Source: Escherichia coli
GTDB lineage: Bacteria > Pseudomonadota > Gammaproteobacteria > Enterobacterales > Enterobacteriaceae
Direction: 5' to 3' (one strand)
Assembly (NCBI RefSeq): GCF_041248615.1
Contig: NZ_CP158426.1
Length of the DNA: 64,000 bases
Below the pieces are notes generated by a model. That model did not search any database. It was not told where the DNA came from and was given only the letters and a program-made list of their open reading frames with translations. Shown piece after piece: positions 49,533 to 51,453 of the stretch; the first letter of the stretch is position 1, and the number at the start of each line of letters is the position of its first letter. Made by a program: the position numbers and the translations under genes.

Positions 49533-49636
49533 AACTCCTGAGCAGGCGGCACTATGCCGCTTTCATAGGAGTTCTGAATGCTGGTGCTTTCTGTATGGCA
49601 TAACCATGCCTCTAACGGTTAAGTGCCTGCAGCACA
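49533..49636. repeat. ~104-bp repeat R1 (nested hairpin), direct copy of R2
   Basis: AACTCCTGAGCAGGCGGCACTATGCCGCTTTCATAGGAGTT... with outer stem AACTCCT/AGGAGTT and inner GCGGCA/TGCCGC; overlaps the 3' end of the antitoxin gene; ~85% identical to 51350..51453. Confidence 0.8.
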
Positions 49637-49902
49637 TGTTGCGGATCATTGGCAATCGCTCGCAGCAAAGCCTTTGCAGGCCCAGTCGGTGAACGTCGCC
49701 CCTGCTCCCAGTTACGCAACGTGTCTACGCTTACGGAAATAAGTTCGGCAAATTTAGATTGTGACAACCCTGAAGCGCGGCGTATTTCTTTGATTTTCAT
49801 AGCATCAACTTCAAAAGTCCGTGAAGGGTGTCGCGTTCCTTCAATAATTTCATTCATCTGGGCCATGCTGTGAGTCAACCGCTCAAAAAGTGCCTTATCC
49901 AT
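49612..49902 (-). CDS. HTH-XRE antitoxin (HigA-like), second gene of a toxin-first TA operon
   Basis: 96 aa; SD GAGGTGG upstream; start abuts the toxin stop. HTH segment IKEIRRASGLSQSKFAELISVSVDTLRNWEQGRRSPTGPAKALL. Confidence 0.8.
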   Translation of the reverse strand: MDKALFERLTHSMAQMNEIIEGTRHPSRTFEVDAMKIKEIRRASGLSQSKFAELISVSVDTLRNWEQGRRSPTGPAKALLRAIANDPQHVLQALNR

Positions 49903-50214
49903 TTACCACCTCGTATTTAACAACCGGAGCATTGCTTTTTCCTGGGGAGACAGATCATCTTTAATACCCTTACGATAAATAAGCAGTAATCTGATCTCAT
50001 AATGTTTAACCTGATGAAAGTAAATAACCCTGACACCAGCACGTTTCCCCTTTCCTCCTGACACCCATCGAACCTTTCTTAACCCACCAGTTTCAGGTAT
50101 TACCTCACCATAGTCAGGATTCAAGGCCAGGAAAAACTGAAAACGACTGAATTCATCGTCGGTCAGCAGTTTTTGAACATCTTCAGTAAAAATTTCCGTT
50201 TCGATGAAGAGCAT
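49903..50214 (-). CDS. RelE/ParE-superfamily toxin (HigB-like)
   Basis: 103 aa, MLFIETEIFTEDVQKLLTDDEFSRFQFFLALNPDYGEVIPETGGLRKVRWVSGGKGKRAGVRVIYFH...; resembles HigB-type toxins as recalled from memory. TATAAT sits immediately upstream of the ATG. Confidence 0.75.
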   Translation of the reverse strand: MLFIETEIFTEDVQKLLTDDEFSRFQFFLALNPDYGEVIPETGGLRKVRWVSGGKGKRAGVRVIYFHQVKHYEIRLLLIYRKGIKDDLSPQEKAMLRLLNTRW

Positions 50215-50430
50215 AATTATACGCCATTGGCTTAGAGTAACAATCCTTTTTGTACGTCATTGACGTACCCTTGAAACCACTAGCTTACTGATAGTGCTCC
50301 AGCAAAACCACGTCTCTGCCGGGTTTGTCTTTACATTTGCGAGGCGCTTTCCAGATTTTTCACGCCCGTGAATTTCCCTGTATCCATCCAGCAAAAACGG
50401 GTGTATAAAACTGTACATTCATACAGCAAA

Positions 50431-51351
50431 ATGAGTTCTACTATGGCACTGGAAAAAGGAATTGCAGAGTTAGTCGAAGAGTTTATCGCTGCGGGTCGCC
50501 CCTCATCGCGTCAACAAAGTATTGCGCAGCGCAGGGAGGGCTATATCGCCAGCGCTGTCCTTGCGGGTGAGACAGAAACGCGGGTAGATATTCAGACTAT
50601 CGAACTTGAAGGGATGATCTTACGAATAGTGTCACCGCTGAATGCCCCGACATTACTCCCGACGATAATTTATTACTACGGTGGCTGTTTTGTTAGCGGC
50701 GGGTTCGCAACTCACGACAACCAGCTGCGCCAGTTAGCCTATTACGGGCAATGTCGGGTTATTGCCGTCCAGTATCGGCTGGCACCGGAACAGACTTTCC
50801 CCGCCGCCCATGATGATGCGCAACGAGGTGCAGAATTAGTCTGGCAACACGCCGAACGACTCGGCGTTGATAAACAACGGATAACTCTTGCCGGTGACAG
50901 TGCGGGCGGACATCTGGCGCTGGTAACTGCTTTGCGATTAAAGCGTGCTGGCGAGTGGCAACCGGCACAACTCATCTTAATTTATCCCATGCTTGATGCG
51001 ACTGCGCATTTCGAAAGCTACATACGCAATGGTCACGATTACATCATCACACGCGACACTTTACTGAGCGGCTTTGAGATGTATCTGCCAGGCATTGAAC
51101 GCAGGCATCCTGAAGCCAGCCCTCTTTGGCGCGATGATTTCAATGGCTTGCCACCTGTACATATCATTACCGCTGAATACGACCCACTTTGCGATGAAGG
51201 TGAAGCGTTGTATCACCGCATGACAGGGCAAGGAGTGCAATGCACCTGCCAACGCTACCTTGGCGTTATCCACGGATTTTTTCAGTTAGGTGGTATCAGT
51301 GAGGCTGCGCGATCGGCGCTGCGGGATGTGGCCTGGAGAGCGGGAAGGTAA
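50431..51351 (+). CDS. Alpha/beta-hydrolase-fold esterase/lipase (HSL/Aes-like)
   Basis: Oxyanion-hole region YYYGGCFVSGG, nucleophile elbow GDSAGG, downstream catalytic Asp/His candidates. Start ambiguous: GTG 50368, ATG 50431 or ATG 50443, none with a clear SD. Confidence 0.7.
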   Translation: MSSTMALEKGIAELVEEFIAAGRPSSRQQSIAQRREGYIASAVLAGETETRVDIQTIELEGMILRIVSPLNAPTLLPTIIYYYGGCFVSGGFATHDNQLRQLAYYGQCRVIAVQYRLAPEQTFPAAHDDAQRGAELVWQHAERLGVDKQRITLAGDSAGGHLALVTALRLKRAGEWQPAQLILIYPMLDATAHFESYIRNGHDYIITRDTLLSGFEMYLPGIERRHPEASPLWRDDFNGLPPVHIITAEYDPLCDEGEALYHRMTGQGVQCTCQRYLGVIHGFFQLGGISEAARSALRDVAWRAGR

Positions 51352-51453
51352 CTCCTGAGCAGGCGGCACTATGCCGCTTTCACAGGAGTTCTGAATGCTA
51401 GTGCTTTCTGTATGGCTTCGCTATGCCCCTCGCGGCTAAGCGCCTGCACACAT
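51350..51453. repeat. ~104-bp repeat R2, direct copy of R1 with a degenerate antitoxin 3'-end remnant
   Basis: AACTCCTGAGCAGGCGGCACTATGCCGCTTTCACAGGAGTT...; the distal part reads as a mutated copy of the antitoxin C-terminal coding sequence. Confidence 0.8.

Follow-up and report, generated by a model that had tools for sequence, protein, structure and literature searches.

The DNA analysed here, referred to as the window, is a 64,000-nucleotide stretch of the Escherichia coli contig NZ_CP158426.1 (RefSeq assembly GCF_041248615.1). At its fdhE–fabY locus, two direct repeats bracket a toxin–antitoxin (TA) pair and an esterase gene. The antitoxin gene, nadS (49612–49902, minus strand), encodes a 96-aa HTH protein of the HigA-2 type that scores 60.4 bits against a NadS cut-off of 60. 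The adjoining toxin gene (49903–50214, minus strand) encodes a 103-aa HigB-2-like protein of the RelE/ParE family, listed in the source annotations as ‘Toxin HigB-2’ and ‘RelE/ParE family toxin’; it matches phrog_5869 (E=6e-27) and, weakly, the Pfam RelE profile PF06296 (E=0.006). The two genes abut at 49902/49903. Judged by the adjacency of toxin and HTH antitoxin genes and by their family matches, the bracketed pair qualifies as a predicted type II TA module. A literature search for NadS brought up only a K-12 paralogue, irrelevant to this nadS. Just upstream of the toxin gene lies the sole good promoter found in our scan, TTGTTA-16-TATAAT (50216–50243, minus strand), with 10 of 12 matching positions. 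The esterase gene (50443–51351, plus strand) encodes an alpha/beta-hydrolase of the hormone-sensitive-lipase type.

Three further genes flank this segment, all on the minus strand. On one side, a small gene (49315–49527) encodes a basic, Cys-rich protein of 70 aa and is followed downstream by a partner gene encoding 92 aa (48975–49253). The 70-aa gene, which PGAP does not annotate in the majority of records inspected, encodes a member of a real family, phrog_4499, with 967 representative clusters that include T5-like phages. On the other side, a gene encoding 614 aa, hereafter gene B (51520–53364), is intact in the window. Its product carries the CX5R motif of inositol 4-phosphatases. Neither the 614-aa nor the 92-aa protein had a match in PADLOC, NCBIfam, PHROGs, Pfam or PDB.

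An earlier note, made from the sequence alone, had described a pair of direct repeats of about 104 bp and 85% identity at this locus. The repeats, R1 (49533–49636) and R2 (51350–51453), to which no strand was assigned, proved to be real: a repeat search aligned 49533–49631 with 51350–51448 over 99 nt without gaps, at 89% identity and a spacing of 1,817. The identity is uneven, with 65 matches in the first 68 nt and 23 in the next 31 nt, and R2 has a 1-bp deletion relative to R1 just after the aligned 99 nt. The 64-kb window contains exactly two occurrences of the repeat’s 33-nt head, while two matches were obtained in none of 100 shuffled sequences.

Read on the minus strand, the unit opens with about the last eight nadS codons (about 25–30 nt) and continues through a short spacer into the 5′ leader of the 70-aa gene, some 72 nt long, which accounts for about 70% of the repeat and contains a hairpin. 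R1 is the working copy, located between nadS and the 70-aa gene. As had been proposed, it overlaps the end of the antitoxin gene (the last eight codons and the stop, 49612–49636) and supplies the Shine–Dalgarno ribosome-binding site (SD) of the 70-aa gene, AGGAG on the minus strand, 7 nt before the ATG. R2 has neither gene attached. It does lie directly behind the esterase gene, to the point of starting inside the esterase stop codon (GGTAACTCC), which forms its left joint; its right joint is with the 3′ flank of gene B. Its distal end was also correctly recognised as a mutated antitoxin C-terminus: a decayed nadS 3′ end (51429–51456, minus strand) reads ..CVQALSRE, compared with ..HVLQALNR* in NadS, with the stop codon TAG changed to GAG, the 1-bp deletion, and no nadS upstream. 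About 25% of positions differ between the nadS tails of R1 and R2.

The composition of the unit is clarified by an allele, W (L013, L015 and L070), in which only the ATG-proximal ~72 nt are kept beside the 70-aa gene, with unrelated DNA upstream and no adjoining nadS. The leader therefore belongs to the 70-aa gene and the remainder of the repeat to nadS. The description of the repeat as a TA-associated unit thus holds for the nadS tail; it fails for the larger part, which is the leader of another gene and occurs without nadS. The two repeats are two copies of one local sequence, a hairpin leader plus the last codons of an antitoxin gene, and not the ends of a mobile element.

Each copy is headed by a nested hairpin with the stems AACTCCT/AGGAGTT and GCGGCA/TGCCGC, just as first described. 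In R1 (49533–49573, minus strand), the outer stem pairs AACTCCT at 49533–49539 with AGGAGTT at 49567–49573, which places the SD within the 3′ arm of the hairpin on the mRNA; the stem stops 5 nt ahead of the ATG at 49527. The R2 hairpin (51350–51390, minus strand; outer stem 51350–51356 with 51384–51390) is an orphan that no start codon follows. The inner stem, read from the sequence, is the same in both. The 73-nt leader RNA of R1 folds stably (−24.4 kcal/mol, z=−4.7 against shuffled controls), and its nucleotides −14 to −5 have a mean pairing probability of 0.80. Four leaders of distant homologues (L029, L043, L065 and L078) are dissimilar in sequence and share the same design, with z-scores of −3.2 to −5.5 and SD pairing probabilities of 0.68–0.97. 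Their stems include CACTCCGA/TCGGAGTG (outer) and GCGCGGC/GCCGCGC (inner) in L029, TTTCTTCATAT/ATATGAGGAAG (outer) and CGCGGT/ACCGCG (inner) in L043, and the outer stem ACTCCAA/TTGGAGT in L078. The hairpin is weaker in the L076 leader, much weaker in the leaders of T5-like phages and absent from three homologue leaders examined (L066, L068 and L079). Because the diverged outer stems could not be aligned by MAFFT, covariation was counted formally for the inner stem only, which is 94% paired with two compensatory pairs in a set of only six sequences.

An Rfam search of 48300–52000 gave no match at either copy, even at E≤10, and a promoter and terminator scan placed no promoter-like site at R1 or R2, nor a terminator-like site on either strand. 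The latter result is explained by the lack of a U-tract after the stem, the minus-strand tail being only UUUUAC. The hairpin also folds on the plus strand (−46.6 kcal/mol, z=−3.8, in the R1 context), where both copies present AGGAG, 6 nt, an ATG and a 14-codon ORF of the same length. Folding and comparison together point to a putative role of the leader hairpin in translational control of the 70-aa gene. The apparently conserved hairpin is a modest by-product of this analysis. A bolder reading is that the nested hairpin is an undescribed cis-regulatory RNA of the 70-aa family, with an anti-SD/SD outer stem and an invariant GCGG/CCGC inner stem, to which the protein perhaps binds to regulate itself, and that as a DNA quasi-palindrome it is also a hotspot for template switching or illegitimate joining that drives cassette turnover at the locus. 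We offer this tentatively and consider it rather improbable as a whole.

The repeat was present in 3,369 out of 5,426 complete E. coli genomes, always at the fdhE–fabY locus, at a median of one place and a maximum of two. No match was retrieved from the phage collection. The plasmid collection gave four, all in chromosome-sized records of 1–4.9 Mb, so the repeat is absent from true plasmids. When 100,044 species genomes were scanned with the leader pattern, matches came from one Escherichia sp., which carries allele W, and from one 445-bp, low-coverage contig of a Micromonospora assembly, which is presumably contamination.

Four arrangements of the locus coexist in these genomes, counted by their specific junctions where a repeat is present. 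Arrangement X has one repeat, the TA pair and the esterase gene (2,309 genomes); Y has one repeat and gene B, without the TA pair or the esterase gene (733 genomes); Z has both repeats, as in the window (329 genomes); and 2,057 genomes have no repeat. The X, Y and Z counts add up to 3,371, close to the 3,369 repeat-bearing genomes. Strains lacking the esterase, whose comparison had been suggested in the earlier note, thus exist in number, and they hold a single repeat. In Y and Z alleles, gene B accompanies R2. In X, the esterase gene is followed by its native 3′ flank, TAACTCCGGACCAGG, then by a different hairpin and the fabY stop codon, and this flank is also found in a divergent X-type group (L009–L012 and L016). 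The Z junction, TAACTCCTGAGCAGG, coincides with the start of R2, and the leader in Y reads AAAACTCCTGAGCAGG. The native esterase flank and the leader have in common the hexamer AACTCC, located in the window at 51350–51355 (plus strand).

The R2 haplotypes of Z genomes match single-copy haplotypes of Y genomes: R2 in the window is the L026 haplotype, and that of L020 is of the O157 type. Traces of exchange between the copies were observed as well. In L020, a lineage-specific 1-bp deletion is common to R1 and R2, and L006 holds a mosaic with the centre of R1 and the tail of R2. About one-third of Z genomes show coordinated changes that have rewritten one arm of the hairpin in R2. One by-product flagged here is a clear quasi-palindrome ‘correction’ event. 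Among the seven Z and eight Y alleles sampled, the B region is 96–98.8% identical between alleles, all the Y alleles have a divergent ‘short-left’ flank, and there is no near-identical Z/Y twin pair, so that no recent repeat-mediated gain or loss was caught directly. E. coli alleles of the flanking DNA differ by 1–4%.

The esterase had been thought to be captured between the repeats. Outgroup synteny speaks against this: Enterobacter has the order fabY–esterase–higB–nadS–fdhE, and in Yokenella and Salmonella higB(-nadS) occupies the same fabY–fdhE interval, with no esterase called, in all cases without the repeat. The TA pair and the esterase gene are thus ancestral residents and not captured cargo. 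Later arrivals are R2 together with the 614-aa gene on one flank and the small-gene block on the opposite flank. Comparison with the outgroup nadS genes found no donor with a tail closer to that of R2.

These observations are probably best explained by recombination between alternative arrangements of the locus, which would have left one local sequence twice without the involvement of a mobile element. The most plausible reading of arrangement Z is an X/Y recombinant with its joint at the AACTCC microhomology, at the base of the hairpin. Starting from a backbone ancestor with the order fabY–esterase–higB–nadS–fdhE, allele X would have arisen in Escherichia through the addition of a block consisting of the leader, the 70-aa and 92-aa genes, yiiE and yiiF after nadS. 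In another lineage, allele Y would have received gene B in place of the esterase gene, higB and most of nadS, leaving a decaying nadS tail beside the leader. X-type and Y-type chromosomes would then have recombined by homologous crossover on one side and, on the other, by an illegitimate joint at the AACTCC that the native 3′ flank of the esterase gene shares with the foot of the leader hairpin. The resulting allele Z would hold the TA pair and the esterase gene between an X-derived R1 and a Y-derived R2. Afterwards, the two copies would represent only ~100 bp of homology, through which crossing-over or gene conversion may delete or re-insert the 1.8-kb TA–esterase segment and swap variants. 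Neither a dedicated recombinase nor a mobile element would be needed. The suspicion that the repeats are a footprint of duplication or recombination is borne out with respect to recombination, as all copies lie at one locus and no genome has more than two. The junction is new and located at a microhomology, and both parental junction types are extant; we infer the direction and order of events and the step of illegitimate joining. Some observations sit less easily with this account. The first 14 nt after the X esterase stop match the repeat at 12 positions, better than chance, and could instead be what a deletion left of R2, in which case Z would be older than X. Moreover, the ~25% difference between the nadS tails far exceeds the divergence usual in E. 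coli and requires a Y lineage that is old or introgressed.

A different origin of the second copy is conceivable, although we find it unlikely. In this scenario, the 1,817-bp unit R–nadS–higB–esterase was doubled head to tail in an X-type chromosome, creating the esterase/R junction; the second copy was then mostly replaced by gene B to give Z, from which Y derived by deletion between R1 and R2, while X kept or regained a single unit. The spacing of the repeats is exactly one such unit, the junction lies at a short homology, as expected of a duplication endpoint, and the L006 mosaic and the variants shared by R1 and R2 show that the copies do exchange. However, two extra events are required, a duplication and a precise replacement of the second copy. 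An in-situ copy should also share the nadS tail of R1, and the tails differ by ~25% compared with 1–4% in the flanks. The ‘short-left’ flank of all sampled Y alleles is more readily explained by a separate lineage than by repeated deletion from Z. Less probable still is that R2 was kept for a function of its own, as terminator or stabiliser of the esterase transcript or as source of a small plus-strand product. The good plus-strand fold, its start at the esterase stop codon and the constant length of the 14-codon ORF in the two copies would suit such a role, but neither copy has a terminator-like site on either strand, X alleles have a native hairpin of their own after the esterase gene, allele W has not kept the mini-ORF, and one arm is rewritten in the Z genomes mentioned above.

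Two readings that would detach the repeat from local history fare worse. One, raised in the earlier note, takes R1 and R2 for attL/attR-like sites of a TA–esterase module moved by a site-specific recombinase, for example through integron-type attC hairpins. Chromosomal integrons commonly carry TA cassettes, the TA-containing segment here is indeed flanked by direct repeats that include an imperfect palindrome, and the 733 single-copy genomes could pass for ‘empty’ alleles, though these are equally expected from homologous recombination. We regard it as very improbable. No integrase or recombinase, nor a family match to one, occurs in or beside the segment in any annotated locus, and no intI is annotated at the loci examined; other genera, which lack the repeat, have the bracketed genes at the corresponding syntenic site; and the unit was never found elsewhere in the genomes, phages or plasmids searched. 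The hairpin ends, GTAAAAC...GTTCTGA on the plus strand and TCAGAAC...GTTTTAC on the minus strand, do not fit the attC cores RYYYAAC/GTTRRRY either. The other reading, a member of a dispersed extragenic family (REP/BIME, ERIC or RSA-like) that occurs here twice by chance, would deprive the pair of any bearing on local rearrangement, as the earlier note had acknowledged. The element is indeed short, intergenic and hairpin-containing. With at most two copies per genome among the 5,426, all at one locus, it is not a dispersed extragenic element, and neither the Rfam search nor the species-genome scan points to such a family. This is the least credible of the alternatives, refuted by the copy-number census.

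The repeat pair is an ordinary recombination scar. The tempting reading of a TA-plus-esterase ‘cassette’ with att-like ends is wrong and can now be removed, and a concrete history of this hypervariable locus, in its four arrangements, can be offered instead. A duplicated leader of some 100 bp can allow a TA/esterase segment to be gained and lost by ordinary homologous recombination. By-products of the analysis are an unannotated small gene with an apparently conserved leader, predicted to sequester its SD, and a 614-aa CX5R protein.

Parts of the locus can be compared with known systems. The bracketed genes resemble type II modules of the HigB-2/HigA-2 (RelE/ParE-type) kind in their abutting 103-aa toxin and 96-aa HTH antitoxin genes. 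Here, however, the repeat is not part of the module, as it includes only the antitoxin 3′ end, and TA homologues in other genera lack it. With integron gene cassettes and their attC sites the locus shares an imperfect palindrome at the boundary of a TA-bearing segment; it differs in having no integrase, array or core-site consensus, and its segment is syntenic and ancestral. Leader hairpins that sequester the SD are known from RNA thermometers and from translational operators, for instance of phage small genes. As in these, a stable stem ends 3–5 nt before the start codon and has the SD in its 3′ arm, and the design is kept in several distant homologues while the sequence changes. Unlike them, the present leader has no Rfam family, nests an invariant GCGG/CCGC inner stem within the anti-SD/SD stem, and is missing its hairpin in some family members. 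Finally, homology-facilitated illegitimate recombination, followed by deletion or duplication mediated by direct repeats, is known from natural transformation of Acinetobacter and Streptococcus. The present locus is alike in combining one new junction at a microhomology, AACTCC, with homologous flanks; both putative parental alleles still circulate, and the ~100-bp repeats show signs of later exchange. It differs in that the event is deduced from population genomics and not observed, and in the position of the microhomology at the foot of a strong quasi-palindrome, a structure that may have favoured the joint.

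The repeat pair lies in the E. coli fdoGHI-fdhE ... fabY (yiiD) region and comprises 99 gapless nucleotides (49533-49631 and 51350-51448), 89% identical and spaced 1817 bp apart. The window has exactly two occurrences of the first 33 nt of the repeat, a count that none of 100 shuffles reached. Identity between R1 and R2 is uneven (65/68 over the first 68 nt and 23/31 over the next 31 nt), and R2 has a 1-bp deletion after the matching stretch. Each copy contains a nested hairpin, with an outer stem AACTCCT/AGGAGTT (49533-39/49567-73 in R1 and 51350-56/51384-90 in R2) and an inner stem GCGGCA/TGCCGC. 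The final eight codons of the antitoxin gene nadS (49612-49902, minus strand), together with its stop, fall within R1, which ends 5 nt before the ATG of a 70-aa ORF (49315-49527, minus strand). R2 starts within the esterase stop codon, and its far end translates as ..CVQALSRE, compared with ..HVLQALNR* in NadS. The earlier note had described the pair correctly in every element.

The 104-nt unit is present in 3369 of 5426 complete E. coli genomes, with at most two places per genome (median one), and all the repeat loci examined belong to the same fdhE-fabY interval. Membership of a dispersed repeat family, which the earlier note had set against a local rearrangement, is therefore rejected on copy number. 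No match to the repeat was found among 50,697 phage records, and its four PLSDB matches are all in chromosome-sized records of 1-4.9 Mb. Rfam gave no match at R1 or R2, and a scan for the leader pattern across 100,044 species (one genome each) retrieved only an Escherichia sp. and a tiny contaminant contig. No recombinase is annotated or detectable within or adjoining the bracketed segment. The att-like site suggested earlier was abandoned on recombinase, core motifs and insertion relative to outgroups: an att site of an integrative element fails on the recombinase and on its insertion status, and an integron attC site on the core motifs and the recombinase. R1 and R2 are neither dispersed nor mobile elements.

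Some strains carry insertion sequences at the locus: IS621 separates fdhE from yiiF in locus L003 (2588-3568), and ISKpn26 lies inside the repeat in locus L008 (5050-6240), cutting it after ~50 nt. A low-coverage contig of 445 bp in a Micromonospora craterilacus assembly (L069, NZ_POTY01000570.1) is E. coli DNA from the fdhE-fabY locus and likely represents contamination.

Structural alleles were defined by BLAST maps of the window against the fetched loci, together with junction-specific searches. Allele X (2309 genomes) reads leader-R1-nadS-higB-esterase, a 61-bp native spacer and fabY. Allele Y (733 genomes, e.g. O157:H7) reads leader-R-B-fabY, without the TA pair or the esterase, and allele Z (329 genomes) has both repeats, as in the window. 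These three add up to 3371, against 3369 repeat-carrying genomes. The repeat is absent from 2057 genomes; in the one examined, K-12, a deletion spans ~49010-53270.

The 70-aa ORF represents a real gene, with a match to phrog_4499 (E = 1e-13). A profile built from three homologues retrieved 967 representative clusters at E <= 1e-3, with relatives in T5-like and other phage contigs. Its close homologues are all at the same Escherichia fdhE-fabY locus. A further allele, W (L013, L015 and L070), is arranged as fabY, three other genes, the 70-aa, 92-aa and 110-aa genes, and fdhE. Of the repeat, it retains just the ~72 nt nearest the ATG, immediately ahead of the 70-aa gene, and the DNA beyond is unrelated. 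Because of this, the repeat unit divides into a ~72 nt leader of the 70-aa gene and ~30 nt of nadS, which comprise its final codons and a small hairpin. R1 is the intergenic region naturally found where nadS adjoins the 70-aa gene; R2 is another copy, attached to neither of these genes.

Among the records examined, PGAP annotates the 70-aa gene in one E. coli record only (L018, a 73-aa version). Homologues also have unrelated neighbours, for example AbiGi or a response regulator. A 394-bp stretch (49080-49473) carrying most of the 70-aa and 92-aa genes is intact in the window and lacking in the majority of E. coli alleles, all sampled Y included; its loss truncates both genes and leaves a 30-codon stub. 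The adjacent 48794-49083 is 75-81% identical between two allele classes, far more diverged than its flanks.

In the minus-strand mRNA, the SD AGGAG forms the 3' arm of the outer stem, and 5 nt separate the end of this stem from the AUG. For the 73-nt leader of R1 the folding energy is -24.4 kcal/mol (z = -4.7 relative to dinucleotide-shuffled sequences), with a pairing probability of 0.80 for the SD region. Leaders of homologues 45-58% identical in protein have a different sequence and the same design: L029 (outer CACTCCGA/TCGGAGTG, inner GCGCGGC/GCCGCGC, z = -5.5), L043 (outer TTTCTTCATAT/ATATGAGGAAG, inner CGCGGT/ACCGCG, z = -3.2, SD pairing 0.97), L065 (z = -4.4) and L078 (outer ACTCCAA/TTGGAGT, inner GCGCGGT/ACCGCG, z = -3.2). 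In T5-like leaders the stem is just a short TCTCC/GGAGA, and the hairpin is absent from homologues L066, L068 and L079. The inner stem shows 94% pairing across six aligned sequences, where four GCGG/CCGC pairs are invariant and two pairs are compensatory; MAFFT left the outer stem unaligned. On the basis of comparison and folding, the proximal portion of the repeat is taken to be a translational leader that would mask the ribosome-binding site. A canonical terminator at R1 or R2 was ruled out by a scan of both strands.

In three Z genomes (L001, at 6818-6858 in R2 of strain 7/2, L019 and L022), the R2 hairpin (equivalent to 51350-51390 of the window) has TGTGAAAG in place of TGAGCAGG as its left arm. 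The change amounts to three substitutions in a cluster, which create a perfect 19-bp palindrome with the right arm, the hallmark of a quasi-palindrome template-switch 'correction'; at >=99% identity, this version is matched by ~121 genomes. As the hairpin is palindromic, the plus strand also presents AGGAG, 6 nt and an ATG, opening a 14-codon ORF (49578-49622 in R1, MLVLSVWHNHASNG; 51395-51439 in R2, MLVLSVWLRYAPRG) with the same stop position in both copies; allele W does not keep this ORF. The most novel residue of the analysis is the leader hairpin, conserved in an uncharacterised family of phage-associated small proteins, along with its mutability as a quasi-palindrome.

Toxin homologues ~70% identical, named HigB-2 or RelE/ParE in their sources, occupy the same fabY-fdhE interval in other genera. 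The order in Enterobacter is fabY-esterase-higB-nadS-fdhE, and at this site in Yokenella and Salmonella higB(-nadS) is present and no esterase gene is called. The leader, the small genes, yiiE/F and B are missing from all of these loci. The TA pair is therefore ancestral at the site, and the esterase occurs there at least in Enterobacter. The proposal that the esterase had been captured between the repeats does not hold, since Enterobacter already has esterase-higB-nadS in this interval without the leader. Two additions are specific to Escherichia: the block of small genes on the far side of nadS, and B (together with R2), which lies between the esterase gene and fabY.

Gene B, a 614-aa ORF on the minus strand (51520-53364), is intact in the window. 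Its CKSAKDRT (51817-51840) is an exact C(X)5R motif, quoted as the active-site motif of inositol polyphosphate 4-phosphatases (PMC3248162). B gave no Pfam, NCBIfam, PHROG, PADLOC or PDB sequence match. A similar C(X)5R-type motif occurs in SopB/IpgD. In every other Y and Z genome examined, B is split, its pieces being annotated as two 'hypothetical protein' ORFs or as a 'transposase' and a partial hypothetical protein. Elsewhere in the window, a local paralogous repeat of ~84 bp, ~80% identical, lies next to yiiF and yiiE (48174-48256 and 48612-48695); weak, sub-threshold Thr/Phe-leader Rfam matches on its second copy are probably due to chance.

The simplest account of the second copy is a three-step history from X through Y to Z. 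With X as the ancestral allele, Y would have arisen as B took the place of the esterase gene, of higB and of the bulk of nadS, leaving a nadS tail since deprived of its stop codon and reading frame. Z would then have come from recombination of an X-type with a Y-type chromosome, by homology at one end and by illegitimate joining at AACTCC at the other. Downstream of the esterase stop, X alleles (the divergent X-type group L009-L012/L016 among them) continue with TAACTCCGGACCAGGGCCC, a hairpin and the fabY stop. Z alleles continue with TAACTCCTGAGCAGGCGGC, the beginning of R2, and the Y leader reads ..AAAACTCCTGAGCAGG. The Z junction therefore falls within an AACTCC microhomology between the native X flank and the base of the leader hairpin (12/14 if extended). 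The main alternative is an in-situ tandem duplication whose second copy was then replaced, with Y derived from Z; here, the 12/14 match in the X flank could be a stub of R2, and a search for a donor nadS with an R2-like tail found none. The X-Y-Z history fits the 48794-49083 flank, which in all sampled Y alleles is only 75-81% identical to that of the window, and the similar divergence between the R2 and R1 tails. It also fits the R2 haplotypes of Z genomes, which are the single-repeat haplotypes of Y genomes: R2 of the window equals that of L026, and R2 of L020 is of the O157 type.

A 1-bp deletion specific to the lineage occurs in both repeats of Z locus L020, and the repeat of Y locus L006 joins a centre of R1 type to a tail of R2 type. 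These sequence patterns point to crossing-over or conversion between the copies, an exchange that would delete or re-insert the 1.8-kb TA-esterase segment. As for a recent event, no Z/Y pair with near-identical flanks was found in the sample. R1 and R2 now behave as ordinary homology, and the pair is a real feature with an ordinary cause.

Compared with known systems, the leader fits the class of SD-sequestering hairpins and is without a curated family. The TA pair qualifies bioinformatically as a HigB-2/HigA-2-type module, of which the repeat is not part. Homology-facilitated illegitimate recombination and direct-repeat recombination are both known mechanisms, and the scar at this locus fits the two combined.
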